Positions 9,346 to 27,601 of a DNA stretch of 64,000 nt are shown here, piece after piece. This DNA comes from Escherichia coli. GTDB lineage: Bacteria > Pseudomonadota > Gammaproteobacteria > Enterobacterales > Enterobacteriaceae. The stretch lies in NCBI RefSeq assembly GCF_048403405.1, contig NZ_CP183129.1; one strand, 5' to 3'. Made by a program: the position numbers and the translations under genes. Every line of letters begins with the position of its first letter. The stretch's first letter is position 1. The notes below the pieces were generated by a model. That model had not been told where the DNA came from, searched no databases, and was given only the letters and a program-made list of their open reading frames with translations.

Positions 9346-9436
9346 AACGCCTCCTGACGCAACAACTTACCCGCACAAAATAGAATTGTGCTGTACAAAC
9401 GTCCAGTTGGAAAGGCATTTCCTGCGAGGCGCTACG

Positions 9437-9469
9437 CAAAAATACAAAAGGCCGAACGCGTCGGCCTTC
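9437..9469 (-). terminator. Rho-independent terminator downstream of udp
   Basis: On the minus strand: GGCCGACGCGTTCGGCC hairpin followed by TTTTGTATTTTT, about 20 nt after the udp stop. Confidence 0.6.
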
Positions 9470-9485
9470 AGACAGGAGAAGAGGA

Positions 9486-10247
9486 TTACAGCAGACGACG
9501 CGCCGCTTCCACCACGATTTTCACCGCTTGGCTTTCAGTTTGTTTCATCGTCTCAGCATTCGGGATCTCTTGCTGGGTGCGGTTAACGATAACACCCGCT
9601 ACCATACCGGCACGTAGGCCCTGACTTGCACACATGGTCAGCAGGGTTGCAGATTCCATTTCATAGTTCATTACGCCCATCGCCTGCCACTCTTCCATAG
9701 AACCTTTAAAGTGACGAACTACGCGACCAGAGTAAGTATCGTAACGTTCCTGACCTGGGTAGAAGGTATCAGAAGAAGCCGTCACGCCAACGTGAGTCGT
9801 CGCGCCGATGGATTTCGCAGCCTCAACCAGCGCAGTCGTACATTCGAAATCAGCGACAGCCGGGAATTCCAGCGGTGCGAAGTGCAGGCTCGCGCCATCC
9901 AGACGAACAGACGCCGTGGTAACCAGGACATCACCCACATTAATATGCGGCTGAATAGCGCCCGTTGTACCGATACGCAGGAAGGTGCGAATGCCCAGCT
10001 GTGCCAGCTCTTCAACAGCAATAGAGGTAGACGGGCCGCCGATACCGGTAGAGCAGACGATAACAGGTTTACCATCCAGCTCTGCACGCCAGGTGGTGAA
10101 TTCGCGGTGAGATGCCAGCTTAACCGGCTTATCCATCAGCGCGGCGATCTTTTCCACACGATCCGGGTCGCCAGGGACGATGGCAAGCGTAGCCCCTTGT
10201 AAATCGTTTTTAGTGAGGCCGAGATGAAAAACATCAGACTTGGACAT
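9486..10247 (-). CDS. udp: Uridine phosphorylase
   Basis: ORF open to 10253; canonical 253-aa Udp begins [19 protein letters not shown]. Confidence 0.95.
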
Positions 10248-10508
10248 ATACAACTCCTCTGTGAATCGGTTTAGTCAGAAGAAGCAAAAAGACACTTTAC
10301 CGAAGGGTTTAACATTTTTTCGTGATACTCATCACCATGACGCAAATGCGTTGCATAAATTTACCCACCAAAAGTGATGCAAATCACATAAATCACTCTT
10401 CATTCTGCAGGACTGCATAAAAGATGAGCCGATTCAGGCAATGTGATTTGTTGCATGCTGACTATAGTTAACATTGCGCAACATTTTTATAAGGGTACGG
10501 AGAATACC

Positions 10509-11318
10509 ATGGCAACAACACAACAATCTGGATTTGCACCTGCTGCATCGCCTCTAGCTTCGACCATCGTTCAGACCCTGGACGACGCGATTGTGGCGGG
10601 CTTCACCTCTATCCCTTCACAAGGGGATAACATGCCTGCTTACCATGCCAGACCAAAGCAAAGCGATGGCCCACTGCCAGTGGTCATTGTAGTGCAGGAA
10701 ATTTTTGGCGTGCATGAACATATTCGCGACATTTGTCGCCGTCTGGCGCTGGAGGGGTATCTGGCTATCGCACCTGAACTTTACTTCCGCGAAGGCGATC
10801 CGAATGATTTTGCCGATATCCCCACGTTGCTTAGCGGTCTGGTAGCAAAAGTGCCTGACTCGCAGGTGCTGGCCGATCTCGATCATGTCGCCAGTTGGGC
10901 TTCCCGCAACGGCGGCGATGTTCATCGTTTAATGATCACCGGATTCTGCTGGGGTGGACGTATCACCTGGCTGTATGCCGCGCATAATCCACAGCTAAAA
11001 GCCGCAGTGGCGTGGTACGGCAAACTGACGGGCGATAAGTCGCTGAATTCACCGAAACAACCTGTTGATATCGCAACCGATCTTAACGCGCCGGTTCTCG
11101 GCTTATATGGCGGCCAGGATAACAGCATTTCGCAAGAGAGCGTGGAAACGATGCGCCAGGCGCTGCGGGCAGCAAACGCGAAAGCAGAAATTATCGTGTA
11201 CCCGGATGCAGGGCATGCGTTCAACGCCGATTATCGTCCGAGCTATCATGCCGAGTCTGCGAAAGACGGCTGGCAGCGAATGTTGGAATGGTTTACACAG
11301 TATGGTGTTAAAAAGTAA
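10509..11318 (+). CDS. ysgA: Dienelactone hydrolase family protein (YsgA-like)
   Basis: ORF open from 10443; start placed at MATTQQSGFAPAAS, which is preceded by a GGAGA SD. Alpha/beta-hydrolase features (GFCWGG nucleophile elbow). Confidence 0.85.
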   Translation: MATTQQSGFAPAASPLASTIVQTLDDAIVAGFTSIPSQGDNMPAYHARPKQSDGPLPVVIVVQEIFGVHEHIRDICRRLALEGYLAIAPELYFREGDPNDFADIPTLLSGLVAKVPDSQVLADLDHVASWASRNGGDVHRLMITGFCWGGRITWLYAAHNPQLKAAVAWYGKLTGDKSLNSPKQPVDIATDLNAPVLGLYGGQDNSISQESVETMRQALRAANAKAEIIVYPDAGHAFNADYRPSYHAESAKDGWQRMLEWFTQYGVKK

Positions 11319-11574
11319 CGCCATAGTCGCTAAATCTGATGATTAAGCTCACACAATTTCAACGATTTTTTTAATCTCAAAACCATACAGCATCAAAAAA
11401 TTTGTTGCTGTATGCCACTCTTTGACTCCCTTCACATTCGTCATCACACCACCTGCTGAATGCAAAAATTTCGTTGCTGTGCGGCAAACTTTTTTCCTGT
11501 TTTGTGCCGCTTTTCTCCTGAATACTCGTTCTCAGAACAACTGGATCGTTTAAACATCAGACAGGAGATTTACC

Positions 11575-12243
11575 ATGACGCAATCCATTTTTCAGGCTCA
11601 ACCCTTTGAATTACCTTTTGATCCGCGCACAACTGCACTGGTCATGATCGACATGCAGCGTGACTTTGTCGAAGCAGGGGGCTTCGGTGAGGCACTGGGC
11701 AATGATGTTTCACTGGTACGCACGGCTATCGCACCATGTACAGAGGTGCTGGCAGCCGCACGTCAAAAAGGAATTATGGTTATTCATACTCGTGAAGGCC
11801 ATCGTGCAGACTTAAGCGACTGCCCGCCAGCCAAACTGACGCGCGGCGGAAAAACCTTTATTGGTGAACCAGGACCGATGGGACGCATTCTGGTCAGAGG
11901 TGAAGCAGGTCATGACATCATTCCTGAACTGTACCCGGTGGCAGGCGAACCGGTGATTGATAAGCCTGGCAAAGGCGCGTTTTATCAAACCGACTTACAT
12001 CTGATTTTGCAAAACCACGGTATCAAGACGCTGATAGTTTGTGGTGTAACAACCGAAGTTTGCGTAACCACCACCGTGCGCGAAGCAAATGATCGTGGCT
12101 ATGAATGCATTATCCCGGAAGATTGTGTCGGCTCCTATTTCCCGGAATTCCAGAAATACGCCCTCGAGATGATCAAAGCACAAGGTGCCATTTTCGGTTG
12201 GGTTACTGATTCCAAAGCCATTATTGCAGGTCTGGAAGGCTAA
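11575..12243 (+). CDS. Isochorismatase-family cysteine hydrolase (RutB / N-carbamoylsarcosine amidase / biuret hydrolase-like amidase)
   Basis: 222-aa ORF with the isochorismatase-fold signature: Asp in VMIDMQRDF near the N-terminus and catalytic Cys in CGVTTEVCV. AGGAGA SD upstream. First gene of accessory operon A. Confidence 0.8.
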   Translation: MTQSIFQAQPFELPFDPRTTALVMIDMQRDFVEAGGFGEALGNDVSLVRTAIAPCTEVLAAARQKGIMVIHTREGHRADLSDCPPAKLTRGGKTFIGEPGPMGRILVRGEAGHDIIPELYPVAGEPVIDKPGKGAFYQTDLHLILQNHGIKTLIVCGVTTEVCVTTTVREANDRGYECIIPEDCVGSYFPEFQKYALEMIKAQGAIFGWVTDSKAIIAGLEG

Positions 12244-12248
12244 CGCCG

Positions 12249-13109
12249 ATGGCACAGATTACGCTTTGCGCATCGTCGTTGGGATATCTTTTCCCGCAGA
12301 ATGAAACGCAAGATTTACGTCTGCATAGCGCTTTTAAACATGCGGTAAATCTGTATTCAGAAGCGGGAACATTCATCACTCTGTTGTGTGCGCAAACGTA
12401 TCTGAATCTCCCTGATGCTGCCAGAGTCTGGCTACCTGAATGTTGGGACTGGCGAAGAGAGATTGCCCATTCCGATCCCGTTCAGTTAACCCCAGGCTTA
12501 CTGCAGACACCTCGCTTTTGTGTGGCTCTCGATAACGCAACGCTCTGGCAGCCGTCATTTGTGGGAGGAAGGCTGACACTTGAGGCGTTCCCTTTGGTTT
12601 TCCAGCACTACCCAACGATGGCATCGCAACGGCTTTTATTTTGTCTGGAGCATAACGTTCAAAGCACATTGCACCTGCCGGATAGTCTCACGCACCAGGG
12701 ATTAGCGATTATGGAACATCCAGATGCGCTGGAACGCCAGGTGCCACAACTGATCGGCTTTGGTAAAGGCTTAACGCCCGATGGAGATGACTATTTGTTG
12801 GGCTATCTGGCAGCACTCTGGTTATGGCAACTCCCTGCACCACTTGCCGATCATCAATACCGGTTGCAGCAGGCAATTGATCAACATGCGCACAACACCA
12901 CGGATATCAGTCGTCATTATCTGGAGCGTGCGCTTCAGGGACATTTTTCAGAACCGATTTGCCAGTTACTCGCACAACTGGTTGGGAGCGCATCGGCAAT
13001 GACAATCGCATCCTGTGCAGAACAGGTCATGCAATTTGGCGCAACGTCAGGAGTAGATTGCCTTGCAGGAATGCTGCATGGCTTTCGAACCCTGAACACC
13101 ATGAATTGA
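12249..13109 (+). CDS. DUF2877-family protein (YlbF/YahE/AllH-like subunit of an oxamate-carbamoyltransferase-type complex)
   Basis: 286-aa ORF starting 6 nt after the previous stop; Gly-rich motifs GKGLTPDGDDYLLGY and GATSGVD resemble the DUF2877 family as I recall it. Position matches the yahE-yahF-yahG-yahI order. Confidence 0.65.
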   Translation: MAQITLCASSLGYLFPQNETQDLRLHSAFKHAVNLYSEAGTFITLLCAQTYLNLPDAARVWLPECWDWRREIAHSDPVQLTPGLLQTPRFCVALDNATLWQPSFVGGRLTLEAFPLVFQHYPTMASQRLLFCLEHNVQSTLHLPDSLTHQGLAIMEHPDALERQVPQLIGFGKGLTPDGDDYLLGYLAALWLWQLPAPLADHQYRLQQAIDQHAHNTTDISRHYLERALQGHFSEPICQLLAQLVGSASAMTIASCAEQVMQFGATSGVDCLAGMLHGFRTLNTMN

Positions 13110-13203
13110 TTTCAACCTTTTCTCCTGTAGCTCATTTATGGCGCTACACGGGGATGCTTTGCCCGAATTTTACTATCGGGCGGAATGAAACAGGCGTAAC
13201 AGC

Positions 13204-14763
13204 ATGAAAGTTAAATATAAAGTTTTCAGTAATCTTTATCAGGACTCAGTTTCTCTGATGCAGATTTCCGCGCAAATCAGCAAGTTGCCCGGTATTCAAC
13301 AGGCCTCGGTCGTCATGGGAACACCCAATAATCTCGAACAATTGCGCGATGCGGGTCTGGGTAACGAAATCAACGCCAGTCCCAATGATTTAGTGATTGC
13401 AGTCATGGGTGAAGAAGATATTTGCAATGAAGCACTGGCACTGGCCCAGCAACGTCTGACCAGCAAACCCGATGATGAAACGGATAGTGGCATTAAAACA
13501 CCGGAAAATGTCAGCCTGGACATGGCACTGGAAGCCGAACCCGAAGCCAACCTGGCACTCATTTCTGTACCGGGAGACTACGCCGCCGCCGAAGCAATTA
13601 AAGCGTTAAACCTCGGAATGAACGTGATGATGTTCAGCGATAACGTCAGTATCGCGCAGGAAAAATCCATCAAAATACTTGCCCGAGAACGTCAGCGCAT
13701 CGTAATGGGACCTGACTGTGGAACCGCCATTGTTAACGGCATTCCGTTAGGCTTCGCTAATGTGGTGAAACGCGGAGCAATTGGTGTTATTGGCGCGTCA
13801 GGCACCGGGCTACAGGAAGTGACTTGCCGAATCGACCAGCTCGGAGCGGGTATTTCTCAGGCGCTGGGAACAGGCGGGCATGATCTCAGTGAAGAGATTG
13901 GTGGAATATCGATGCTCTTCGCTTTAGATGCGCTGGCGCAAGACGATGAAACTCGCGTAATTGTGCTGATTTCAAAACCGCCTTCACCGATCGTTGCCCG
14001 GACTATTCTGGAGCGTGCCGAGGCTTGTGGAAAACCCGTGGTGGTGAATTTCCTCGGTGCGAATCCGCATGATCTGGCACGTCCCAATATCACTGCCGCC
14101 ACCACACTTGCCAGCGCCGCCGACATCGCTGTGGCGTTACTGAATGCTCAGCCACTTCCGGCTGTCGAGACCGAGATTTCCTGCGCCGATCTCACAATGT
14201 TACAAAACGCCTGTCAGCGCCTGCCAGCCCATCGCCAGGCGATACGCGGTGTTTTCGCCGGAGGAACCTTCTGCTACGAAGCGCAACTTATCTGCCAGCA
14301 AAAGGGATTCCGCGCCGCCTCCAATACGCCAGTTGCGAGTAATCGTACTCTGGCAAATATCTGGCAAAGCGAAGATCACACGCTGATCGATATGGGCGAC
14401 GATGATTTCACCCGTGGCAAACCGCATCCAATGATCGACCCGACTCTGCGCAATCAACGTCTGCTCAACGAACTCAACGACTCACACACTGCCGTCGTGT
14501 TATTCGACCTGGTACTTGGTTATGGCGCTTCCGCTACACCTGCCAGCGAATTACTGGACCAACTTTCACACATCGACATGAATAACGCACCGTTGCTGAT
14601 TGCGCACGTTTGCGGAACGGAAGCTGATCCGCAAATACGCAGTCAGCAGATAAGCGCACTACAAAATGCGGGCATCATCATTGCCAGCAGCAATGCACAG
14701 GCGGCGCTATGGGCCAGCGTCGTTGCGCAGACTCAGTTGCAGAAAAAGGGGCTAAACGCATGA
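13204..14763 (+). CDS. FdrA-like protein (CoA-binding / succinyl-CoA-synthetase-like fold; AllF/YahF family)
   Basis: 519-aa ORF sharing long motifs with E. coli FdrA as I recall it (NLALISVPGDYAA, MMFSDNVS, MGPDCGTAIVNGIPLGFANVV, GVIGASGTGLQEV, GRPHPMIDPTLRNQ). Confidence 0.8.
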   Translation: MKVKYKVFSNLYQDSVSLMQISAQISKLPGIQQASVVMGTPNNLEQLRDAGLGNEINASPNDLVIAVMGEEDICNEALALAQQRLTSKPDDETDSGIKTPENVSLDMALEAEPEANLALISVPGDYAAAEAIKALNLGMNVMMFSDNVSIAQEKSIKILARERQRIVMGPDCGTAIVNGIPLGFANVVKRGAIGVIGASGTGLQEVTCRIDQLGAGISQALGTGGHDLSEEIGGISMLFALDALAQDDETRVIVLISKPPSPIVARTILERAEACGKPVVVNFLGANPHDLARPNITAATTLASAADIAVALLNAQPLPAVETEISCADLTMLQNACQRLPAHRQAIRGVFAGGTFCYEAQLICQQKGFRAASNTPVASNRTLANIWQSEDHTLIDMGDDDFTRGKPHPMIDPTLRNQRLLNELNDSHTAVVLFDLVLGYGASATPASELLDQLSHIDMNNAPLLIAHVCGTEADPQIRSQQISALQNAGIIIASSNAQAALWASVVAQTQLQKKGLNA

Positions 14764-16184
14764 ATACCTTATTTAATCAGCCTTTGAAGGTTGTGAACGC
14801 GGGACTACACAGTTTTGCTGACAATATTCAACATGCCGGGGGAAGCGCAATTGCACTCAACTGGCAGCCACCAGCACAAGGCGATATTGACGCTGGATTG
14901 GATCTGGCATCGTTGCTACGTCATCCACTGGTAGAAAATGCCAACCAAATCGCCATGACACGTTATCTCGAAGCACAGCCCGTGCTGGTAGATGTCATGC
15001 TCGCTAAAGAGGCCATTCCAGCAATGGCTGAACAAAAACGTATTTTGCACTCTGGCCCGCCGATTGCCTGGGAAGAGATGTGTGGTCCGGTAAAAGGGGC
15101 GATTATTGGTGCCATGCTGTACGAAGGTTGGGCCACCAGCCAGCAAGACGCTGAAAACCAGATAAACGCAGGCGAAATCGACCTTGCCCCTTGTCATCAT
15201 TATCACGCGGTTGGCCCAATGGCTGGCATCATCAGCCCGTCGATGCCGTTATGGGTGGTAGAAAACAAAACCAACGGCCACCGTACTTTTAGCAATTTCA
15301 ATGAAGGTCTGGGTAAGGTTCTCCGTTTTGGCGCCAATAACGATGAAGTTCTCAATCGTCTGGCCTGGATGCGCGATGAACTGGCGCCGGCAATGAAAGC
15401 AGCAATCGCACAACACGGCGAGCTGGAACTCAAGCCATTAATGGCGCAGGCGCTGCATATGGGGGATGAAGTTCATAACCGCAATGCTGCCGCTACCGGT
15501 TTGCTGATTAAGCGCCTGCTCCCGGCATTGCTGGCCTGCTCTCTTCCACAGGAACATATCCAGCGCGTCGTGGCATTTATCACCGGTAACGATCACTTCT
15601 TCCTCAATCTGTCGATGGCTGCCTGTAAAGCAATGATGGATGCCGCCGCCAATGTACCGTTCAGTTCAATGGTTACGGTGATGGCGCGTAACGGGGTGAA
15701 TTTTGGTATTCGGCTTTCCGGTACTGGCGATCGCTGGTTCCAGGCTCCTGCCAATGCCGTTGAAGGTCTGTTCTTCCCCGGATTTGGCGTTGACGACGCT
15801 GCTGCTGACCTGGGTGATAGCGCAATTACTGAAACCGCAGGTGTGGGTGGCTTCGCGATGGCGTCGTCTCCGGCGATCGTCAAATTTGTGGGAGGCACCC
15901 CTGCCGATGCCACCAATAACAGCCGTCGGATGCAAGCCATCACCCTCGGCGGTAACCCCGCATTTACACTTCCAGCCCTCAATTTTGCCCCCACCGCAGC
16001 AGGGATTGATGCGCGTAAAGTGACCGATCGCGGCATTTTACCGGTCATCAATACGGGTATCGCCCACAAACAAGCGGGGGTCGGGCAAATTGGTGCCGGG
16101 ATCACCACTGCGCCGATGGCCTGTTTTGTCGCCGCTGTACGTGCACTGGCGGAGATCGTCGCAAAGGAGAACCATCATGGTTAA
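14760..16184 (+). CDS. DUF1116-family protein (YlbE/YahG/AllG-like)
   Basis: ORF open from 14709; I place the start at the ATG at 14760, which overlaps the FdrA-like stop (ATGA), giving MNTLFNQPLKVVNAG. Same gene order as yahF-yahG and fdrA-ylbE. Confidence 0.75.
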   Translation: MNTLFNQPLKVVNAGLHSFADNIQHAGGSAIALNWQPPAQGDIDAGLDLASLLRHPLVENANQIAMTRYLEAQPVLVDVMLAKEAIPAMAEQKRILHSGPPIAWEEMCGPVKGAIIGAMLYEGWATSQQDAENQINAGEIDLAPCHHYHAVGPMAGIISPSMPLWVVENKTNGHRTFSNFNEGLGKVLRFGANNDEVLNRLAWMRDELAPAMKAAIAQHGELELKPLMAQALHMGDEVHNRNAAATGLLIKRLLPALLACSLPQEHIQRVVAFITGNDHFFLNLSMAACKAMMDAAANVPFSSMVTVMARNGVNFGIRLSGTGDRWFQAPANAVEGLFFPGFGVDDAAADLGDSAITETAGVGGFAMASSPAIVKFVGGTPADATNNSRRMQAITLGGNPAFTLPALNFAPTAAGIDARKVTDRGILPVINTGIAHKQAGVGQIGAGITTAPMACFVAAVRALAEIVAKENHHG

Positions 16185-17133
16185 GCCACTGGCTGTTGTC
16201 GCGGTTGGCGGCAATGCGCTCATTCAGGACGAGCAACGCAATAGTATTCCCGATCAATATGTTGCAGTGATGGAAAGCGTGCAGCATATCGTTGATATGG
16301 TTGAAGCCGGATGGGACCTGGTGCTAACCCACGGTAATGGCCCGCAGGTGGGCTTTATTCTGCGCCGCTCTGAACTCGCCAGTAACGAAGTTTCTCCGGT
16401 TCCACTTGATTACGCCGTGGGTGATACACAAGGTGCAATTGGCTACATGTTCCAGAAAGCGCTGCATTACGAATTGGCTCGCCGTGGCATAAACAAACCG
16501 GTAATTGCCCTGGTGACACAAACGCGAGTCAGCCCACATGACGATGCTTTCGCCAACCCCAGTAAACCGATTGGCGCGTTTCTCGATGAAGCAACGGCCC
16601 AACAACGCCAACAACAACTCGGCTGGACGCTGATGGAGGACGCCGGGCGTGGTTGGCGGCGTACAGTTCCCTCTCCTGCACCACTGGAAATTATTGAGCA
16701 CGACACCATCGCTCACCTGGTGCGCCAGGGATATCTGGTTATTGCCTGCGGCGGCGGCGGTATTCCGGTGGTGCGAGACGGGCAACAACTGAAAGGTGTA
16801 GAAGCCGTGATCGATAAAGATCTGGCCTCCGCGCTGCTCGCCAGTCAGTTAGGCGCAGATCTGCTGGTGATCCCCACCGGTGTAGAAAAAGTGGCGATTA
16901 ACTTTGGTACACCACAACAACAGTGGCTCGACGCTATCAGCGTTGCCGAAGCGCAAACGCTGTTGCGGGAAGGTCAGTTTGGTGTCGGCAGTATGCAACC
17001 CAAAGTGGAAGCCATTGTTGATTTCATCAATGCCAGCCAGCAACAAGGCAAACAGGCCAGCGGCCTGATTACTTCACCGCAAACCATAAAAGCAGCCCTG
17101 GCGCATCAGAGCGGTACATGGATAACCCTTTAA
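16177..17133 (+). CDS. Carbamate kinase (ArcC/YahI/AllK family)
   Basis: ORF open from 16090; start placed at MVKPLAVVAVGGNALI (the classic carbamate kinase N-terminus) with an AAGGAGA SD 7 nt upstream; 8-bp overlap with the preceding gene. Confidence 0.85.
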   Translation: MVKPLAVVAVGGNALIQDEQRNSIPDQYVAVMESVQHIVDMVEAGWDLVLTHGNGPQVGFILRRSELASNEVSPVPLDYAVGDTQGAIGYMFQKALHYELARRGINKPVIALVTQTRVSPHDDAFANPSKPIGAFLDEATAQQRQQQLGWTLMEDAGRGWRRTVPSPAPLEIIEHDTIAHLVRQGYLVIACGGGGIPVVRDGQQLKGVEAVIDKDLASALLASQLGADLLVIPTGVEKVAINFGTPQQQWLDAISVAEAQTLLREGQFGVGSMQPKVEAIVDFINASQQQGKQASGLITSPQTIKAALAHQSGTWITL

Positions 17134-17149
17134 ATCTCTGGAGAACACA

Positions 17150-17539
17150 ATGACTACAACGCTTTTAGCCGTTAACGGAACGCTGATGCGCGGCCTGGAA
17201 CTCAACCCAAATATGAAAAAAGCGGGCGGTATTTTTGTCCGTGAAGACCGAACTGACGCCCATTACCGGTTGTGGAGTATTAACGATCGCCATCCGGGAA
17301 TGATTCGCGTGAATGAAGGAGGAACACACGTCGACGTAGAAATTTGGCAATTACCGCTGGCCAGTTTTGCCGCTCTGTTAATGAGCGAACCCGCTGGGCT
17401 GGCAATTGGCAAAATCAAACTTGCCGATGGTAGCGAAGTGCTGGGCGTACTGGCAGAAAACTGGCTGACCGAAGGCCAACGGGAAATTACAGAACTGGGC
17501 GGCTGGCGCAAATACACCGGGCATTTTCATACTGTGTAA
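17150..17539 (+). CDS. Small protein resembling the C-terminal domain of allophanate hydrolase (GGCT-like fold), tentative
   Basis: 129-aa ORF. The segment YRLWSINDRHPGMIRVNEGGTHVDVEIWQLPLASFAALLMSEPAGLAIGKIKLADGSEVLGVLAENW...LGGWRKY resembles the allophanate hydrolase C-terminal domain pattern as I remember it. Assignment from memory only. Confidence 0.5.
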   Translation: MTTTLLAVNGTLMRGLELNPNMKKAGGIFVREDRTDAHYRLWSINDRHPGMIRVNEGGTHVDVEIWQLPLASFAALLMSEPAGLAIGKIKLADGSEVLGVLAENWLTEGQREITELGGWRKYTGHFHTV

Positions 17540-17564
17540 CGCGCATTTATAAAGGGAACATACT

Positions 17565-18788
17565 ATGCGTAAAAAAGAAGAGAATCTGAATACGGCATCA
17601 GGATTGCGTATTGCCATGATTTTGCTGGGTATTGCCGTCACACCTGTGCTGTTGTCATCCTCAAGCCTCGGCAATCAACTTTCCAGCGGCAGTTTAATTA
17701 GCGTCGTATTGTTAGGCGGCGTCATTCTGACCTTACTTTCAGCCATCACCATTAGCGTGGGAGAAAAAGCCCGCCTGCCAACGTATGGCATTGTGAAATA
17801 TTCGTTTGGCGAAAAAGGGGCCATCGCCATTAACATTTTGATGGCGATAAGTCTGTTCGGCTGGATTGCCGTTACCGCCAATATGTTTGGTCATTCGGTA
17901 CATGACTTACTGGCTCAACATGGACTGGAAGTTCCACTGGCACTGTTAGTGGCGGCTGGCTGTGTCATTTTTGTCGCCTCTACGGCATTTGGCTTTGCCG
18001 TTCTGGGAAAAATTGCCCAGGTTGCCGTGCCGGTTATCGCGCTGGTGCTGTGTTACATCCTCTATGTGGCAACCCATACCGAAGTGGCAGTACCAGCGGC
18101 GATTGTGGAGATGAATACAGGTGTCGCCGTTTCCACCGTTGTTGGCACCATTATTGTGCTGGTTGCCACACTGCCTGATTTCGGTAGTTTTGTGCATAAC
18201 CGCAAACATGCACTGATTGCCGCAGGCGTGACGTTTCTGGTTGCCTACCCTCTGCTCTACTGGGCGGGTGCAACGCCGAGCGCCATTAGTGGTCAGGGAT
18301 CTTTACTGGGTGCGATGGCGGTATTCGGTGCGGTTCTGCCTGCGGCGCTGTTGTTGATTTTCGCCTGCGTCACCGGTAACGCGGGCAATATGTTCCAGGG
18401 CACGCTGGTGGTTTCCACACTGCTTACCCGCTTTCCCAAATGGCAGATTACCGTGGCGCTGGGTATCCTTTCCGCCATCGTAGGCAGTATGGATATTATG
18501 GCGTGGTTTATTCCGTTTCTGCTGTTCCTGGGTATCGCCACGCCACCCGTTGCCGGAATTTATATCGCTGACTTTTTCCTTTATCGCCGTAATGGCTATC
18601 AAGAGTCAGTGTTAGCCCAGGAGTCACAGATTAAAGTGCTGACATTCGCAGCATGGATCATAGGCGCAGCGGTTGGCTTTATGACCGTAAAAGGCTTATT
18701 CACCCTGACGACGATCCCTTCGGTAGACTCGATTCTGGTGGCATGTATCGCGTATGCGATTCTCAGTCGGGCAAGTCAACACCGCTAA
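17565..18788 (+). CDS. NCS1-family nucleobase/hydantoin-type permease (CodB-like)
   Basis: 407-aa polytopic membrane protein (about 12 hydrophobic segments) with length and organisation like the cytosine permease CodB. Confidence 0.75.
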   Translation: MRKKEENLNTASGLRIAMILLGIAVTPVLLSSSSLGNQLSSGSLISVVLLGGVILTLLSAITISVGEKARLPTYGIVKYSFGEKGAIAINILMAISLFGWIAVTANMFGHSVHDLLAQHGLEVPLALLVAAGCVIFVASTAFGFAVLGKIAQVAVPVIALVLCYILYVATHTEVAVPAAIVEMNTGVAVSTVVGTIIVLVATLPDFGSFVHNRKHALIAAGVTFLVAYPLLYWAGATPSAISGQGSLLGAMAVFGAVLPAALLLIFACVTGNAGNMFQGTLVVSTLLTRFPKWQITVALGILSAIVGSMDIMAWFIPFLLFLGIATPPVAGIYIADFFLYRRNGYQESVLAQESQIKVLTFAAWIIGAAVGFMTVKGLFTLTTIPSVDSILVACIAYAILSRASQHR

Positions 18789-18865
18789 TTCCTGGGTATA
18801 CTCAGGCAATGATTACGGCTGAATCTGGAGAGATTCAGCCACTTTACCACTGACCAGGGAGCCTT

Positions 18866-19771
18866 ATGTTCATCTCAGACGAAACGCTTCGTGTTATTCA
18901 TCTGGTCGCCAGACACCAGAGCATTACCATCGCAGCCGAGCAGTTAAATAAAGTCCCTTCCGCCATCAGTTACACCATCAAGAAAGCGGAAGAGAGCCTG
19001 GGCGTTGAACTGTTCATTCGTAAGGGACGCTATATTGAATTATCGCCAGCGGGAAGTTACTTCATCGAACATAGCAAAACTATTCTTGGCGACCTGGAAG
19101 CATTAAAGCGCAACACAGTGCTGATTCACGATGGTATTGAGCGTGAACTGACAATTGCGGTAAACAATATTATTCCTGGTAATTTGCTGGTGGCATTTAT
19201 TCGAGATTTTGAACGGCAATTCACATCAACAACACTGACGGTAGATCTTGAGGTATACAACGGCTGCTGGGATGCGCTGTACAGTAAGCGTGCTGATCTG
19301 GTCTACGGTGCTCCTCATGCAGTACCAAGTAGTGAAGGCATCATTAGCGAACCGGTCGGACAAATGGAATGGGATTTTGTCGTCAGCCCACTCCACCCAC
19401 TGGCAGCGAAGCGGCATCCATTAGAAAACAGTGAATTGCGTCATTATCCAGCGGTTTGTATCCGCGATACCTCCGTTAACTTCCCCCCGATGCAAGCCTG
19501 GTTGTTGGAAGGACAAAAACCCATTTTTGTTCCTGACTTCGCTACGGCAATCGCCTTAATAGAACAAAACGTCGGTATTGGTTATATTCCACATCATCTG
19601 GCATTGCCGTTATTGAACAGCGGTAAATTGCTTAAAAAGCCAATGCGCGAACATAAACACGCCACCAAGTTATTTCTTGCCGCTCGTTCCGATGGTATGG
19701 GCAAAGCCTGTCAGTGGTGCATAGAATATTTAAGAAACCCGCAATTAATGACACGATTTGTATTTAATTGA
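18866..19771 (+). CDS. LysR-family transcriptional regulator
   Basis: 301-aa ORF with N-terminal HTH (ITIAAEQLNKVPSAISYTIKKAEESLGVELFIRKGR) and C-terminal LysR substrate-binding domain. Confidence 0.85.
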   Translation: MFISDETLRVIHLVARHQSITIAAEQLNKVPSAISYTIKKAEESLGVELFIRKGRYIELSPAGSYFIEHSKTILGDLEALKRNTVLIHDGIERELTIAVNNIIPGNLLVAFIRDFERQFTSTTLTVDLEVYNGCWDALYSKRADLVYGAPHAVPSSEGIISEPVGQMEWDFVVSPLHPLAAKRHPLENSELRHYPAVCIRDTSVNFPPMQAWLLEGQKPIFVPDFATAIALIEQNVGIGYIPHHLALPLLNSGKLLKKPMREHKHATKLFLAARSDGMGKACQWCIEYLRNPQLMTRFVFN

Positions 19772-19899
19772 CAATACAATGATAAAAATATAAGTCTTGC
19801 TTTAATTAGAGCGCCCGTTTAAATTATTTTTGTGCAGTTGACGTAACTCATGAAAATTAACCGGTCTGTTAATCATTACGTTCACTGCACACCTTCATT

Positions 19900-19940
19900 T
19901 TTTCACACCTATCCACGCCTGAAAACTATGTTATAATCAG
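19900..19940 (+). promoter_or_regulatory. Putative sigma70 promoter with extended -10 (TGTTATAAT) for the RpiR-family gene
   Basis: TGTTATAAT at about 19929-19937 in an AT-rich intergenic region, about 30 nt upstream of the ATG at 19971. No convincing -35. Confidence 0.3.
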
Positions 19941-19970
19941 CACTTTCTGTCAGAATGAAATTTACTAATT

Positions 19971-20816
19971 ATGAATAACATAACCGTAAAAAGTCTGATT
20001 CAAAGCAATTACCCTACACTGCATCAGGCGGAAAAAAAGGTCGCCGACTATATTCTTAGCCACGCACATGAAGTCGTGAACTATAGTGTCACTGAACTAT
20101 CAGAAAAAAGCCATGCCAGTGAAGCGACTATCGTGCGCACCTGTAAGAAATTAGGTTATCAGGGTTATTACCATTTAAAAATTGCATTAGCAAAAGAAGT
20201 CATTAATCCTGACAATAGCTATCCTGATAATACCGATTTTACCGATATAACGTCGCTGGCCACATTTTTATTAAAAAAACAGGCCGAAGATTTAATACAA
20301 TCAACGCAATTTTTTAATGCCGAAGTGCTTGAGTCCATTCTCAAACTACTTGCTAATTGCGATACTATTTTCTTTTTTGCTGCCGGAAATTCAAACCCTC
20401 TGGCCGTTTATGGTGCTTATAAATTCAGCCAACTCGGATTAAAAACCGTTGTTCACGTCAGCCCGGAAATGCAAATTAATGCGGCATATTCTATGGGGAA
20501 ACGCGACCTGGCGATTGGTATTTCTAACTCTGGCAGCACCAACTTAATGGTCGATATCTTTAAAGTGGTGAAAGAGCGCGGTGCCAAATCCGTTTGTATC
20601 ACTAACTATATTAAATCTCCGTTATCAAAACTCTCCACCCATCAACTCAATACCGCGGTCAGCGATAAAATCTTCTTTGAAGCCTTCGACTCCACTCGCG
20701 TTCCGGCAATGGGCGTTATTGATATGCTGGTGCTGTTGTTTATGTATAAAAACAAGGCGCATTACGAGAAATACCGCACCCGTGAAGAGTTTCTCGGCTC
20801 CCGTTTCAAGGGGTAA
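19971..20816 (+). CDS. RpiR/MurR-family transcriptional regulator (HTH + SIS domain)
   Basis: 281-aa ORF with N-terminal HTH_6-type region (SVTELSEKSHASEATIVRTCKKLGYQGYYHLK) and C-terminal SIS domain. Confidence 0.85.
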   Translation: MNNITVKSLIQSNYPTLHQAEKKVADYILSHAHEVVNYSVTELSEKSHASEATIVRTCKKLGYQGYYHLKIALAKEVINPDNSYPDNTDFTDITSLATFLLKKQAEDLIQSTQFFNAEVLESILKLLANCDTIFFFAAGNSNPLAVYGAYKFSQLGLKTVVHVSPEMQINAAYSMGKRDLAIGISNSGSTNLMVDIFKVVKERGAKSVCITNYIKSPLSKLSTHQLNTAVSDKIFFEAFDSTRVPAMGVIDMLVLLFMYKNKAHYEKYRTREEFLGSRFKG

Positions 20817-20845: not shown

Positions 20846-22843
20846 TTAGCTATTCAGTAGCTCACGCGCCTGCGCCAGGACATTTTCCGGCGTAAAACCA
20901 AAGTGTTTGAACAACACATTCGCCGGAGCAGACTCACCAAAGCTCGTCATCCCAATGACTTTACCATCCAGACCGACGTAGCGTTCCCAGAATCCGGCGA
21001 TGCTGGCTTCTACCGCCAGACGTTTGCGTACAGCTTTTGGCAATACCGATTCTTTGTACGCCGCATCCTGATTATCGAAACGCTCGGTACACGGCATGGA
21101 AACTACGCGAACTTTACGCCCTTCTTCCGTTAACGCTTTTGCGGCGCTGACCACTAACTCAATCTCTGAACCCGCAGAAATGAGGATCATCTCAGGCTGA
21201 CCGTCACAATCACTCAGTACATAACCACCACGCGCAATCTCTGCCAACTGTGCAGCGGTGCGCGGCTGTTGCGCCAGCGGTTGGCGCGTTAATACCAACG
21301 ACGTTGGGCCATCTTTGCGCTCAATCGCCTGTTGCCAGGCCACCGCCACTTCCACCTGATCGCAACCGCGCCAGGTTTCCATATTCGGCGTCAGACGCAG
21401 CGACGCCAGTTGCTCAACGGGCTGATGTGTCGGGCCGTCTTCGCCCAGGCCGATGGTATCGTGGGTATAAACAAACACCGAGCGGATCTTCATCAGCGCC
21501 GCCATGCGCAGTGCATTACGCGCATATTCCATAAACATCAGGAAAGTACCGCCGTAAGGGATAAACCCACCATGCAGCGCAAGACCGTTCATGATGGCCG
21601 ACATACCAAATTCACGCACGCCATAGGAGATGTAATTCCCCGCCGGATTTTCCCCGGTGAAATCAACCGATTTCTGATGGCGAGTCAGGTTAGAGGGCGA
21701 CAAGTCCGCCGAGCCGCCCATCAGTTCCGGCAGCATATCAGCGAAGTGATTGAGGCATTTCTGGCTGACCTGACGGGTTGCCAGCGCCGCCGGATGGGAT
21801 TGCAGATCGTGCACATATTTCTGCATATTCTCGGCCCAGCCAGCAGGCAAATCACCCTTCATGCGACGAGTAAACTCCGCCGCCAGTTCCGGCCACTGCT
21901 TCGCGTAGTCAGCAAACAGTGCATCCCATTCCTGTTGAACCTGCGCGCCTTTCTCGGTCGCATCCCATTCGGCATAAATTTCACCAGGAATTTCGAAAGG
22001 GGCATACGGCCATTGCAGACGTTCACGCACCAGCGCCACTTCATCTGCACCCAGCGCCGAGCCGTGGCAATCGTGGCTGTTGGCTTTATTTGGTGAACCA
22101 AAACCGATAATCGTTTTGCAGCACAGCAGACTGGGCTTATCCGTGACGCTTTTCGCTTCACGCACCGCAGCATCTACCGCTTCTGGATCGTGACCATCAA
22201 CGCCTTCAATGACATGCCAGCCGTAGGCACGAAAACGGGCAGCCGTATCTTCAGCGAACCAGCCTTCTACGTGACCATCGATCGAAATACCGTTATCGTC
22301 CCAGATAGCAATCAGATTGCCGAGCTTCAGCGTTCCTGCAAGACCACAGGCCTCGTGGGAGATCCCTTCCATCAGGCAGCCATCACCCAAAAATAGCCAT
22401 GTGTGATGATCAACAATATTAAAGCCCGGTTTGTTAAATTCTGCCGCCAGCGCCTTCTCCGCAATCGCCATCCCCACCGCATTAGCTACGCCCTGCCCCA
22501 ACGGGCCGGTGGTGGTTTCAACACCCGGCGTATAACCATATTCTGGATGACCCGGCGTGCGGGAGTGGAGCTGACGAAAGTCGCGAATATCATCCATCGA
22601 CAGGTCGTAGCCTGTAAGATGCAGCAAAGCGTAAATCAACATGGAGCCGTGACCGTTCGACTGAACATAGCGGTCGCGGTTAAACCACTGCGGATTTTTT
22701 GGGTTATGACGCAGGTGACGACGCCAGACCACTTCGGCAATATCCGCCATCCCCATCGGCGCGCCCGGATGACCGGAGTTCGCTTTCTGGATCGCATCAA
22801 CACTTAACATTCGGATGGCATTAGCCAGTAATTGTGAATTCAT
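20846..22843 (-). CDS. tkt: Transketolase paralog (third tkt copy; possibly the ExPEC-associated 'tkt1')
   Basis: 665-aa ORF collinear with E. coli TktA/TktB over its whole length ([81 protein letters not shown]) but clearly divergent from both, and located in an accessory island. Confidence 0.9.
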
Positions 22844-22893: not shown

Positions 22894-24402
22894 TTAGTTA
22901 GCACAGGCCACTGTCATTTCTGTCGGGCGCGGTCTGCTCATTACGGTTTTAATTTCGTCGCGCAGGATTTGCGATTTGCCGCCAAATATCACCTGTACAC
23001 CGCCATCACCCAGTTTCACTAACCCCGCAGCCCCCAACTCCTTCAGCCGTTTTTCATTCACTTTCTTATCGTCTACCAGCGCCAGCCTCAGGCGTGTTGC
23101 GCAGGCATCCACATCTTCGATATTGTCGAAACCACCTACTGCTTCGATGATTTGGTATGGACGTTCTTCGCGCGTTAATGTGGTTGCAACGGCAATCTCT
23201 TCATCCTCACGTCCCGGTGTTTTCAGATTCAACTTGCGGATCAGTACCCGAAATACGGTGTAGTAAATCGCTGCATAGCCCGCGCCTGCCAGGAACACCA
23301 GATACCACGGCGTGCGGTTTGGCATAACGCCATTCAGTACGAAATCAATAAGACCGCCAGCAAAAGGATGACCAATGTGCACATTCAGGATGTTCATCAG
23401 CACAAATGAAGTGGCATATAAGAAGATGTGAATGATGTAGAGAACCGGAGCTGCAAACAAAAATGCATATTCCAGCGGCTCCGTAATCCCGGTAACAAAT
23501 GTGGTCAGCGCACCGGAGAGTAAAAGGCCTTTAATCAGCGCCTTACGTTCCGGTTTTGCTTCCTGATACATCGCCAACGCGGCGGCAGGTAACGCAAACA
23601 TCATGATCGGGAAACGACCTGTCATAAACAGCCCCGCCGTCAACGGAACACCGTCGCGCAATTGGGCAAAGAACACCGGAATATCGCCCGTCACCAGTTG
23701 CCCGGATTTGGTCATGTAGTCGCCAAAGTTGTAATAAAACGGCACGTTCCAGATATGATGCAGGCCAAAAGGAATCAGCGAACGTTCGCCAACGGCGTAA
23801 ATAAAGGCCGCGAAGTTCGCGTTATGCCCACTGGTCACCAGCGTTGAAAGCGACGCCAGACCTTTTTGTACCGGTATCCACAGCCACGGCAATAAATAGC
23901 CGACAATAATTGCCGCCACCGCCGTAATAATCGGTACAAAGCGTTTTCCACCGAAGAAACCAAGAAACTGAGGCAATTCAATATTGTGGAAGCGGGTATA
24001 GAGCAGATAAACAAAGATGGCGACAATCAAACCGCCAAACACTCCCGTTTGTAACGTCGGTACCCCGAGGATCATCGCATAGTCACCGTTACTGGCTGCA
24101 ACGGACTCCGCGGTAATGCCAAGTTGCGTTCCCATCGTGGCATTCATGATCATGTAACTGATAATCGCTGAAAGTGATGAAGAACCATCACCTGTCAGGC
24201 CAATCACAATACCGACACAAAACAGCAAAGGAAGGTTGGCGAAAATCAGGCCGCCGCAATTCGCCAGCAGCTCAATGTTAAATGAAATCCCGATGGCTAA
24301 AATCAAACCCGCCGCCGGAAGAATGGCGATTGGTAACATCAGAGCAGAAGAAAATTTCTGCAACTTCTTGAAGTTAAACAAGGATGTTATTTTTTTGCTC
24401 AT
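22894..24402 (-). CDS. PTS glucose-family EIICB component (EIIC domain followed by EIIB domain)
   Basis: 502-aa ORF: polytopic EIIC region, then a C-terminal EIIB domain with the phosphocysteine motif DACATRLRL. No EIIA domain. Confidence 0.85.
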   Translation of the reverse strand: MSKKITSLFNFKKLQKFSSALMLPIAILPAAGLILAIGISFNIELLANCGGLIFANLPLLFCVGIVIGLTGDGSSSLSAIISYMIMNATMGTQLGITAESVAASNGDYAMILGVPTLQTGVFGGLIVAIFVYLLYTRFHNIELPQFLGFFGGKRFVPIITAVAAIIVGYLLPWLWIPVQKGLASLSTLVTSGHNANFAAFIYAVGERSLIPFGLHHIWNVPFYYNFGDYMTKSGQLVTGDIPVFFAQLRDGVPLTAGLFMTGRFPIMMFALPAAALAMYQEAKPERKALIKGLLLSGALTTFVTGITEPLEYAFLFAAPVLYIIHIFLYATSFVLMNILNVHIGHPFAGGLIDFVLNGVMPNRTPWYLVFLAGAGYAAIYYTVFRVLIRKLNLKTPGREDEEIAVATTLTREERPYQIIEAVGGFDNIEDVDACATRLRLALVDDKKVNEKRLKELGAAGLVKLGDGGVQVIFGGKSQILRDEIKTVMSRPRPTEMTVACAN

Positions 24403-24443: not shown

Positions 24444-25001
24444 CTATTCCAGATTGGCGTGGCGCTTAAACAGTTCACTTTCCGGCGCACCACTTTCAGC
24501 AGCCATCTTCATCACTAATGCATCGGCAATCACCAGCAAAGCTTGCTCATACAACGACGCCATCGGCTGTGCCGAGCGGAAAACAGAATCTTTTTGATTT
24601 TTGGAAGGGGCATTGATTTGCACGATGACGTCGACAAACTCGGTGATAGTGGCGTGTCGATTCGTGGTTAACACCGCCACAGCGCCGCCAAGCTGACGTG
24701 CTTTTTTCGCCAGTGCCACCAGTTGTGCTGTCTCACCGGAAGCGGAAGAAACGATAAACAGATCGCCAGGCCCAAAGTTCGGCGTAATGGTTTCCGTCAG
24801 AAAGTAAACCTCTTTTCCCATATGCATCAGGCGCATGGTGAAGGCTTTCATGGAAAAGCCGGCGCGTCCCAGGCCATAGCAGAAAACGCGCTGGCTTTGC
24901 TGAATAGCGTCGATCAATTTGGTGCAGTCATCCTCACGGATAGAGTCCTTAACGAAGGTTAATTCATTGATGATCTCAGTGATGTACAGCTTTGCGTCCA
25001 T
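24444..25001 (-). CDS. SIS-domain sugar-phosphate isomerase resembling 6-phospho-3-hexuloisomerase (PHI/HxlB-like)
   Basis: ORF open to 25013; start placed at the second Met (MDAKLYITEII), which has a GAGGTG SD about 6 nt upstream. About 185 aa with FTMRLMHMG, SASGET and C-terminal HANLE, as in PHI/HxlB as I recall it. Confidence 0.7.
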   Translation of the reverse strand: MDAKLYITEIINELTFVKDSIREDDCTKLIDAIQQSQRVFCYGLGRAGFSMKAFTMRLMHMGKEVYFLTETITPNFGPGDLFIVSSASGETAQLVALAKKARQLGGAVAVLTTNRHATITEFVDVIVQINAPSKNQKDSVFRSAQPMASLYEQALLVIADALVMKMAAESGAPESELFKRHANLE

Positions 25002-25307
25002 TTCACACCTCATGAAATAATTTTCTCAAACACAAAATCTCATGAAATTTTATTTCATTCCAATGCATCAGTATGAAATGTGAAGCTAGTCACAAGAAAG
25101 ATCATAGGTTGATATGTTTTTCATTAAAAAACATATAGATATCAAGTAATTTTTAATATGTGATGGAGAGGCAGATAGAAAAAATGGCGGAAATGACGAA
25201 ATTTATTTCATGAGAAGGGAATAAAGAAGATTTTCTTAAACAGGGTATGAACTGATATCTGGAATGGTTTACGCAGTATGCTGGGAAGACGTCGCTGTAA
25301 TGAGAAA

Positions 25308-25338
25308 AGACCGGGTGGTATTACCACCCGGTTTGGAT
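25308..25338 (-). terminator. Rho-independent terminator downstream of metE
   Basis: ACCGGGTGG-TATT-ACCACCCGGT palindrome just 3' of the metE stop, flanked by T-rich tracts in both orientations. Confidence 0.5.
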
Positions 25339-25339
25339 T

Positions 25340-27601
25340 TTACCCCCGACGCAAATTCTGCGCCGCCTGCACCATGTTCGCCAGTGCCGCGCGAGTTTCT
25401 GGCCAGCCGCGCGTTTTCAGGCCACAGTCCGGGTTGACCCACAGACGCTCTGCCGGAATGCGTTTTGCCGCTTTCTTCAGCAAGGCTTCAATCCATTCCA
25501 CGCTCGGTACGTTTGGCGAGTGAATGTCATAGACGCCAGGACCGATTTCATTTGGATAATCAAACTCTTCAAACGACTCCAGCAACTCCATGTCGGAACG
25601 CGAGGTTTCGATGGTGATGACGTCTGCGTCCAGCGCCGCAATCGAATCCATGATGTCGTTGAACTCGCAGTAACACATGTGAGTGTGGATTTGTGTGTCA
25701 TCTTTCGCCACGGCGGCGTTGATACGGAAAGCCTCTACGCCCCACTGGAGATATGCATCCCAGTCGCTACGACGCAGCGGTAAACCTTCGCGCAGCGCCG
25801 GTTCATCAATCTGAATGATGCCAATTCCAGCGGCTTCCAGGTCCGCGACTTCATCACGCAGCGCCAGCGCAATTTGTTTGGCGATGGTTTCACGGCTGAC
25901 ATCTTCACGCGGGAACGACCAGCAGAGAATGGTCACTGGGCCAGTCAGCATCCCTTTCACCGGTTTATCAGTCAGCGATTGCGCATACTTCGCCCACTCC
26001 ACGGTAATCGGTGCCGGGCGGCTAACGTCACCAATAACAATCGGTGGCTTCACGCAGCGGGAACCGTAGCTCTGTACCCAACCGTTTTGCGTAAAGACAA
26101 AGCCATCCAGATGCTCGCCAAAGTATTCCACCATGTCATTACGCTCGGCCTCGCCATGTACCAGCACATCCAGTCCCAAACGTTCCTGCTCAACAATGGC
26201 CTGCTTGATATGTTCCGCAATGCCCGTGCGGTAGTTGTTAGCGTCGAGATTACCCTTTTTAAAATCCAGACGCAGGGTACGAATCTCCGTGGTTTGCGGG
26301 AAGGAACCAATCGTGGTGGTCGGCCACGCGGGCAGTTTAAAACGCGCACGCTGGGCTTCAGCACGCACTTCATAGACATTCGCACGCTGACTGTCCTGGG
26401 CGGTGATCGCCGCCAGACGCTTTTCTACTGCCGGATTATGAACACGAGTAGAGTGACGACGCGCCTGAATCGGAGCGCTCCACTCTGCCAGAGCAGCCGT
26501 GTCACCACTGTTCAGCGCATCGCGCAGCAGTGCCAGTTCATGACATTTTTGCAGGGCGAAGGCAAACCAGCTTTTCACTTCTGCATCAAGACGCGTTTCC
26601 ACGCTCAGGTCGATGGGGCTGTGCAGCAGTGAGCAGGAAGATGCCACCCACAAATCGCGTTTGCCGACAATGTCCTTAATTTGCGCATACTTCTCGGTAA
26701 GATCGGCGCGCCAGACGTTACGACCATTGATCAGACCCGCAGACAGTAGCCAGTCAGAAGGCAGACGCTTGTGCAGTTCAGCAACGTCATCTTTACCATG
26801 TACAAGGTCCACATGCAGCCCCTGAACAGGCAGCGCAGTAATCGTGTCGAGATTTGGCGTTACGCCTTCAAAATAGGTAGTCAGCAGCAGTTTCACCTGG
26901 CCCTGAAGCGCGTCGTAAGCGGGTTTGTATGCGTCCAGCCACGCCTGCGGTAGTTCCAGTACCAGTGCGGGTTCGTCGATCTGTACCCACTCAATGCCGC
27001 GTTTTGCCAGTTCTGCCAGTACTTGCTGATAAACCGGCAGAATGTCGTTTAGCAGGCTCAGGCGGTCAAACTGTTCACCTTTCACTTTCCCAAGCCATAG
27101 GTAGGTAACCGGCCCCAGCAGCACAGGTTTCACCTTGTGGCCCAGCGCCAGCGCCTCGTCCACTTCCTCCAGCAGCTGCGTCCAGGTCAGTTTGAACTGC
27201 TGGCCTTTAACGAACTCCGGCACCATGTAGTGATAGTTGGTGTTAAACCATTTGGTCATTTCCGCTGCCGCCGCAGGTTCGCCAGTCGGCGCACGTCCAC
27301 GACCAATACGGAACAGGGTGTCGATATCTACCGAACCATCTTTGTTCTGATGACGTGGCGGAACATTACCCAGCAGCAGACTGGTGGTCAGTACATGATC
27401 GTACCAGGCAAAATCGCCCACCGGCAGCAGGTCGATACCCGCCTGCTTTTGTTGATCCCAGTGACGGGCACGCAGTTCACGCCCTACTGCCAGCAGTTCT
27501 TCACGCGTGGAGTTCCCCGCCCAATAACTCTCTTGCGCTTTTTTCAGCTCGCGACGCAGGCCAACGCGAGGGAAACCGAGGGTGTGATTAAGAATTGTCA
27601 T
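25340..27601 (-). CDS. metE: Cobalamin-independent methionine synthase MetE
   Basis: 753-aa ORF starting [29 protein letters not shown]; canonical MetE length and sequence. Confidence 0.96.

Follow-up and report, generated by a model that had tools for sequence, protein, structure and literature searches.

The RpiR-family regulators whose structures have been solved are all tetramers with a phosphosugar effector in the SIS domain, and some members of the family act as activators (PMC12713135). A member from Escherichia coli is MurR, whose inducer is a phosphosugar (PMC9177960); a MurR tetramer has been proposed to connect two sites separated by 17 bp, in a 47-bp span that takes in the -35 and -10 boxes (PMC12713135). 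RccR and HexR of Pseudomonas are likewise tetrameric, with the phosphosugar KDPG as effector. The RccR operator is the 15-bp sequence TGTAGT-N3-ACTACA, and sites of other spacer length are also bound (PMC5489143; PMC11014249); the HexR operator is TTGT-N7-8-ACAA (PMC5489143). For NanR of S. pneumoniae (SpNanR), the sequence TCTGAAAGTACTTTTAGA is an 18-bp near-palindrome in which TGAAAG and CTTT(C/T)A half-sites are separated by 2 bp (PMC12713135). Autoregulation is true of MurR and RccR, but not of all members of the family.

The tkt1 island of E. coli is known; it is strongly associated with B2 ExPEC, APEC and NMEC strains, and in chickens, signature-tagged mutagenesis identified tkt1 itself as virulence-associated (PMC3349570). 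The same island is the region called 'GR 29' of strain BEN2908 in PMC12928451. Regulation of the tkt1 operon is not addressed in either of these two papers, and a full-text literature search for it likewise came back empty. Here we describe the control region of this operon within a 64-kb stretch of E. coli chromosome (the window). An earlier annotation made from the letters of the window only (the original prediction) had drawn attention to an AT-rich region with repeated copies of a short motif and had proposed these as operators, either for an RpiR-family regulator or for a global one. We find that the set of putative operators is real, conserved and previously undescribed for hxlB-ptsG-tkt1.

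The control region and its setting

The region lies between metE and the hxlB-ptsG-tkt1 operon, both on the minus strand, and is the 5' control region (promoter-operator) of that operon in the tkt1 island beside metE (Table 1). That it controls a sugar operon headed by a PHI-like gene had been predicted, and both points are borne out: the region is directly 5' of hxlB-ptsG-tkt1, and the product of hxlB scores above the cut-off of its NCBIfam model. The AT-richness is equally real, with a GC content of 31% over 25014-25307 and 29% over 25002-25255, as against 51.5% for the whole window. Strains without the island align to the window only from position 25256 onward, so that island DNA stops ~45 bp past the distal motif; of the interval first proposed as island control region, 25014-25307, the part up to 25255 stands, while the remaining ~50 bp (25256-25307) are core DNA downstream of metE. 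For the start of hxlB, the mechanical list of open reading frames gives an ATG at 25013 (189 aa) and PGAP an ATG at 25001 (185 aa); we favour the latter because of the Shine-Dalgarno sequence GAGGTG at 25006-25011. The ATG at 25013 falls within one of the sites described below, O2.

Table 1. Features of the hxlB-ptsG-tkt1 control region and of the neighbouring genes (window coordinates; sites are predicted from sequence).
Feature	Position	Strand	Remarks
metE	25340-27601	-	
metE intrinsic terminator hairpin	25310..25332	-	core E. coli DNA outside the island; insulates the operon from metE read-through
O3	25197..25210	+	CGAAAT-TT-ATTTCA, 2-bp spacer; inverted, 153 bp upstream of O1; motif 2 of the original prediction; proposed auxiliary operator
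CRP-binding site core	25079..25094		TGTGA-agctag-TCACA; centre 36.5 bp upstream of the O1 centre
TTGGAA	25058..25063	-	abuts O1 on the sense strand; conserved TGGAA block
O1	25043..25057		perfect 15-bp palindrome TGAAAT-TTT-ATTTCA, 3-bp spacer; motif 1 of the original prediction; proposed main operator
O2	25013..25026	-	14-bp AGAAAA-TT-ATTTCA (sense strand) with 2-bp spacer; immediately precedes the ribosome-binding site
Shine-Dalgarno GAGGTG of hxlB	25006..25011	-	read from the sequence; start codon at 25001
hxlB-like SIS-domain isomerase (6-phospho-3-hexuloisomerase family)	24444..25001	-	operon gene 1; TIGR03127 (NCBIfam), 205 bits vs 160-bit cut-off
ptsG-like PTS IIBC transporter	22894..24402	-	TIGR02002, 608.6 bits vs 591.8-bit cut-off
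tkt1 transketolase	20846..22843	-	final gene of the operon; Li et al. 2012, PMC3349570
MurR/RpiR-family regulator (HTH_6 + SIS)	19971..20816	+	convergent with tkt1; proposed binder of O1/O2/O3

The proximal part of the region is carried by ~1134 of 5426 complete E. coli genomes, which puts the island in ~21% of them. The left part of the island (window about 9000-19771; L001 1176-9372) is a separate module under a LysR-type regulator, with genes for a cysteine hydrolase, DUF2877, fdrA, DUF1116, carbamate kinase, an allophanate-hydrolase-related protein and a cytosine permease; its role is probably in catabolism of a nitrogen or pyrimidine type, with no connection to the sugar operon. In K. huaxiensis-type contigs (L094 5489-13039; L091), hxlB-ptsG-tkt and a convergent rpiR gene are found directly downstream of metE as in E. 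coli, which suggests a common insertion point or transfer via flanking homology. In Salmonella, the whole module adjoins TraI/UvrD-type genes of a conjugative element.

Three palindromic sites

The three strings named in the original prediction were found where it had placed them: TGAAATTTTATTTCAT at 25043-25058, CGAAATTTATTTCATG at 25198-25213 and TCATGAAAT at 25010-25018. The motif is an inverted repeat, a TGAAAT/ATTTCA palindrome, of which there are three copies, O1, O2 and O3. The two copies described as near-identical are both real, but their spacers are unequal by one base (3 bp vs 2 bp); the supposed third copy is present as well, but is half of a full, conserved proximal site, O2. From the arrangement of the sites we suggest that the functional central pair is O1 together with the full site O2, and not the two copies that were singled out at first. 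The centres of O1 and O2 are 30.5 bp apart, or about three helical turns, with a gap of 16 bp between the sites and a total span of 45 bp.

Such an assembly of sites is not expected by chance. The pattern GAAAT-N2/3-ATTTC has only two matches in the 64 kb, namely O1 and O3, where 0.19 would be expected. When a first-order Markov model is fitted to the AT-rich region and used as chance background, at least two sites with at most one mismatch to TGAAAT-N2/3-ATTTCA turn up in 254 bp with a probability of ~2e-4; and of the 20 ATGAAAT/ATTTCAT heptamers in the window, 5 lie within these 254 bp, a number that was reached in none of 5000 simulations.

The same region also contains a 10-bp inverted repeat, ATATGTTTTT / AAAAACATAT, at 25113-25137, between the CRP site and O3. 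We dropped it as a regulatory element since it is not conserved in the K. huaxiensis-type loci.

Conservation across orthologous loci

Orthologues of HxlB with 72-91% identity are found in Klebsiella huaxiensis, K. grimontii, Salmonella, Raoultella, Scandinavium and Serratia ficaria. For the comparison we used the window plus seven orthologous loci of the K. huaxiensis, Klebsiella/Salmonella, Raoultella and Serratia types, obtained via exact-protein look-ups; a profile search of contigs with the HxlB alignment returned, among the matches listed, only distant Firmicute and archaeal hxlB loci (at most 44% identity), which are unusable for footprinting. O1 is located at -56/-57 from the ATG in all 8 loci, and its 3-bp spacer is kept in every lineage. 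O2 is located at -25/-26, with a 2-bp spacer in all lineages but Serratia, where both proximal sites have 3-bp spacers; in Serratia the starts of O1 and O2 are 30 bp apart, whereas the other six orthologous loci and the window all have an offset of exactly 31 bp. Every orthologous locus also has, at -92 to -94 from the ATG, a CRP-like core of two mismatches or fewer. The sequence between the CRP, O1 and O2 blocks, as well as that upstream of the CRP site, has diverged among the loci. By this alignment, the CRP site, O1 and O2 appear as the invariant core of the layout.

To scan both strands of the window, weight matrices were built from sites outside Escherichia only. The O1-type matrix puts O1 on top with 27.7 bits, the best unrelated match reaching 16.1 bits; with the O2-type matrix the two best matches are, in this order, O3 (30.0 bits) and O2 (23.1 bits), while the best unrelated match has 7.8 bits. 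Because O3 tops the scan with the O2-type matrix, the second copy of the original prediction is a genuine O2-type site in inverted orientation. One further dyad with a single mismatch, TGAAATGTATTTCC, was seen in the Raoultella-type locus (L092 9235-9248), inside a second PTS EIIC gene inserted between ptsG and tkt; it may be due to chance.

The original prediction had named lack of conservation in orthologous islands as one observation that would speak against it. Its first motif and the "third" copy are conserved; the second copy, O3, is absent from some loci. As a whole, the copies are palindromic, statistically unexpected, held in position across genera and found together with an RpiR-family gene, and in all this they behave like the operators they were proposed to be. 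The sites, their statistics, their conserved positions and this co-occurrence are direct observations.

The distal site and its loss

O3-like sites are found at -210 in the K. huaxiensis type (1 mismatch), at -178 in L089 (1 mismatch) and at -181 in the Klebsiella/Salmonella type (2 mismatches); the Raoultella-type locus (L092), which has an IS remnant upstream, and the Serratia locus (L084) have no such site. The K. huaxiensis-type O3 is about 20 bp past that species' own metE terminator. In E. coli, 461 of the ~1134 island-bearing complete genomes (~41%), Nissle 1917, ATCC 11775 and FDAARGOS_1300 among them, lack O3. In these 461 genomes, window 25102-25255 is swapped for ~2.3 kb (L002 6702-8960) with two small hypothetical ORFs and a pseudogene of tssD (Hcp); this replacement variant has no O3-like site. 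Since so many islands lack it, O3 is best regarded as accessory or dispensable.

Where O3 is present, its centre is 122.5, 124.5, 153.5 or 154.5 bp away from that of O1; these distances, from about three independent lineages, are within ~2.5 bp of one helical phase. By analogy with RccR, we can speculate that O1 with its 3-bp spacer, O2 with its 2-bp spacer and the distal O3 are functionally paired and not just variation that is tolerated, and that the sugar phosphate might make the tetramer switch from one spacer class to another, or alternate between bridging O1 with O2 and looping O1/O2 to O3, resulting in graded or dual control; we offer this tentatively and regard it as doubtful. If it were true, the replacement of O3 by the T6SS remnant in ~41% of the islands would be a natural regulatory polymorphism that alters expression of a fitness-associated operon between ExPEC lineages.

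CRP site and core promoter

A global regulator had been offered as an alternative reader of the repeated motif. This part of the original prediction is not upheld: the global input would come through a separate, predicted CRP site that it had overlooked. The perfect core TGTGA-N6-TCACA has a single match in the 64 kb, with 0.09 expected, and a scan for consensus sigma-70 promoters gave no match in the control region; the two observations together fit an activator-dependent promoter. No good -10 hexamer is present in either of the two CRP registers (-41.5 or -61.5), so O1 and O2 can be placed only tentatively relative to RNA polymerase. The block TGGAA is found directly 5' of O1 in five of six aligned sequences, and among the loci compared it is the Serratia one that does not have it. 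The TTGGAA of the window may serve as a -35-like element or else extend the operator.

The candidate regulator

The regulator at the far end of the operon (WP_001060027.1) is named 'MurR/RpiR family transcriptional regulator' by PGAP, and PF01418 and PF01380 are recorded on its orthologues. Its matches to the NCBIfam models for HexR, MurR and AlsR are all below the equivalog cut-offs (for MurR, 70 vs 408 bits), and we therefore consider it an uncharacterised member of the family. Orthologues are 79-80% identical (63% in Serratia) and hardly vary in the HTH region, where the helix-turn-helix stretch SEATIVRxCKKxGYQGYY is the same in all four aligned sequences. The regulator also has the SIS phosphate-loop pattern S-N-S-G-S-T, which by analogy to the S-x-S-x-x-T contacts of NanR fits a phosphosugar effector.

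Every motif-bearing locus with sufficient flanking sequence also has an RpiR-family gene (the window, L083, L084, L092/93, L094 and L095/96; a small sample), and no other regulator is shared by all of these loci. An SgrR-like gene is absent from the E. coli island, and none was seen in the flanks examined of L083, L094 and L095/96. Conversely, hxlB loci with LysR or ROK regulators and without RpiR (L085, L090) have no O-type sites. We suggest from this pattern that the palindromic sites are probably bound by the island's own RpiR-type sugar-phosphate regulator. Upstream of rpiR (19772-19970), no full site with at most two mismatches was found, only the half-sites TCATGAAAA at 19849 and AATGAAAT at 19955. 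Autoregulation through a site at the rpiR promoter is thus not evident, and it is the co-occurrence that ties the regulator to the sites.

Around rpiR, several further observations can be made. An extended -10 promoter, TGTTATAAT, at 19930-19938 is conserved in the Klebsiella and Raoultella-type loci; these loci also have a long inverted repeat, GGCGCGAAAAT-N41-ATTTTCGCGCC, near rpiR that E. coli does not have. Outside E. coli, rpiR ends a GFO_IDH - AP_endonuc_2 - hydrolase - MOFRL (glycerate-kinase-like) operon (L083 11216-14558; L084 1-6762; L092 14561-21035; L095 11215-14558), beside which a divergent SgrR-like regulator is found where the flank is long enough (L084, L092); the GFO_IDH-to-MOFRL part has been lost from the E. 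coli island. The divergent intergenic region between GFO_IDH and the SgrR-like gene (L092 20049-20255) has a perfect CRP core, TGTGA-tgttaa-TCACA. No TGAAAT/ATTTCA dyad was found in this divergent promoter in the Serratia and Raoultella-type loci.

A model for regulation of the operon

Starting from these observations, we infer the identity of the binding protein, whether it represses or activates, where transcription begins, a possible loop and the nature of the inducer as follows. The promoter would be activated by CRP, and an RpiR-family tetramer sitting on O1 and O2 would repress it in the way reported for MurR; repression would be relieved by a sugar phosphate, with O3 as an auxiliary site. 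We give this reading a probability of roughly 60%.

Transcription from the weak promoter would depend on cAMP-CRP binding to its predicted site, and the RpiR-family regulator of the island would keep the promoter off via O1 and O2. Placed as they are, after the CRP site and ahead of the ribosome-binding site, these two sites would cover the core promoter and the region of the transcription start. One tetramer probably bridges O1 and O2 in the manner proposed for MurR. In a class I register (CRP at -61.5), TTGGAA would be the -35 box, O1 (~-32 to -18) would fill the spacer, and O2 (~-1 to +12) would cover the start; in a class II register (CRP at -41.5), O1 would be over the -10 box and the start. 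In either register, a tetramer on O1 and O2 would block RNA polymerase until the sugar phosphate of the pathway releases it. The most likely inducer is either the sugar phosphate that the PTS transporter generates or the isomerase product of that compound, which would bind the SIS domain and so make the repressor let go of the DNA. O3, as an auxiliary operator, may add cooperativity, raise the local concentration of repressor, or permit a DNA loop.

Alternative explanations

The sites might instead be operators for another transcription factor encoded elsewhere, such as an ArgR-like protein, another sugar regulator found throughout the Enterobacterales, or an SgrR-like protein where present. 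The rpiR gene itself does not have a full upstream site, the 14-bp sites match the textbook ARG-box core TGAAT-W4-ATTCA at 12 of 14 positions, and an SgrR-like gene is directly upstream of hxlB in L084 and L089. ARG boxes, however, come as two 18-bp boxes with 2-3 bp between them and centres ~21 bp apart, while here every locus whose O2 has a 2-bp spacer shows a centre-to-centre distance of 30.5 bp, and O1 is 15 bp long; the ARG-box reading, and likewise a Cra/LacI-type one, was rejected on spacing. An SgrR-like protein is difficult to reconcile with sites that are unchanged both in the E. coli island, where the gene is absent, and in L083, L094 and L095, where none was seen in the flanks examined. 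More generally, the sites vanish in the hxlB loci that lack RpiR (L085, L090), and their geometry agrees with known RpiR-family operators, and we thus consider a factor from elsewhere unlikely.

A second alternative keeps the RpiR-family protein on the sites but as an activator or dual regulator, comparable to SpNanR or RccR, with the sugar phosphate stabilising a tetramer that helps RNA polymerase. Members of the family can activate, and the effector of SpNanR stabilises the tetramer with the affinity for DNA unchanged (PMC12713135). RccR switches spacer classes upon ligand binding, and here a 3-bp and a 2-bp class are both conserved; a weak core promoter would also suit an activator. Against this, O1 and O2 are downstream of the CRP site and extend up to the ribosome-binding site. 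Because in both registers they would lie over the core promoter or the first transcribed bases, we infer a repressor position, and consider activation unlikely.

It is also conceivable that there is no specific operator, and that the motif reflects AT-rich acquired promoter DNA silenced non-specifically by H-NS, conserved signals for promoter function and translation initiation, or both. H-NS had been raised in the original prediction solely on the grounds of AT-rich acquired DNA. The island is horizontally acquired, the region has 29% GC in a window of 51.5%, and O2 abuts the ribosome-binding site. Yet the sites remain significant when the background model is itself derived from the AT-rich region, their dyad symmetry is strict, and their positions are kept to the base pair while the AT-rich flanks diverge; moreover O3, 200 bp from the start codon and inverted, is still the top match of the O2-type matrix. 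This makes it very unlikely that the sites are a by-product of composition or of initiation signals; silencing by H-NS could nonetheless act on top of a specific system, as the two are not exclusive.

Action at the RNA level is the least credible reading: although a fold of 25062-24985 (z = -2.1) pairs UAUUUCAU, half of O2, with GUGAAAUG, which includes the AUG, so that a 5'-leader hairpin with the Shine-Dalgarno sequence in its loop would mask the ribosome-binding site, we reject it because the 3' arm (GAAAT at the start codon) is not conserved, being absent in L089, L091/L094 and L084 and degraded in L092, while in addition no compensatory changes were seen across genera, an Rfam search gave only sub-threshold chance matches, the modest z-score is driven by the DNA palindromes, and O1 and O3 are left unexplained.

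We thus return to repression by the RpiR-family tetramer with CRP as activator. Control by a local phosphosugar-sensing repressor together with CRP is a familiar, textbook kind of logic that will not surprise specialists. What the layout of CRP site, O1/O2 and, where present, O3 provides, along with the candidate regulator, are concrete targets for studying what the tkt1 island does. If sugar phosphates release the regulator from the 45-bp operator DNA, this would give a handle for finding the inducing sugar, and strains with and without O3 offer a natural comparison between major ExPEC lineages.

Comparison with known RpiR-family systems

The closest parallel in architecture is MurR. Paired adjacent dyads with a 16-bp gap and a 45-bp span at hxlB correspond to the 17-bp gap and 47-bp span of MurR, and on murQP, too, a local RpiR-family regulator (HTH_6 + SIS) is combined with cAMP-CRP to control a PTS sugar operon (Jaeger & Mayer 2008, cited in PMC9177960). 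As sequences, the sites are not related: no TGAAAT/ATTTCA dyad occurs between murR and murQ of K-12, and since this operator region shows no sequence resemblance, MurR is comparable in architecture only. The gene arrangement also differs, murR being divergent and autoregulated, whereas the regulator gene here is convergent, at the far end of the operon, and without a full upstream site; the third, distal site of the hxlB operon is another difference.

With RccR, O1 shares the same 6-3-6 geometry (TGAAAT-N3-ATTTCA), although the half-site sequence of RccR is different. Both RccR and HexR resemble the present system in that more than one spacer length is used or tolerated (for RccR, 15-bp vs 28-bp sites). 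The second class of RccR sites, however, has a 16-bp spacer, while the two classes here differ by one base (2 bp vs 3 bp); and in contrast to RccR and HexR, which serve central metabolism and have many targets, the regulator described here looks like a local one dedicated to a single operon.

SpNanR differs in being an activator whose effector leaves DNA affinity unchanged, in its Gram-positive host, where CcpA rather than CRP gives catabolite control, and in the adjacent second site, which is a degenerate half-site only. In the DNA itself, it is SpNanR that comes close: its half-sites are one letter each from the O2/O3 type TGAAAT-NN-ATTTCA, and there, as here, several sites are spread across the locus, with bridging or looping by the tetramer proposed. 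Judged from their sequences, the O sites, as dyads of ~14-18 bp with half-sites of 5-6 nt and a short spacer, match in geometry the RpiR-family operators that have been defined experimentally.
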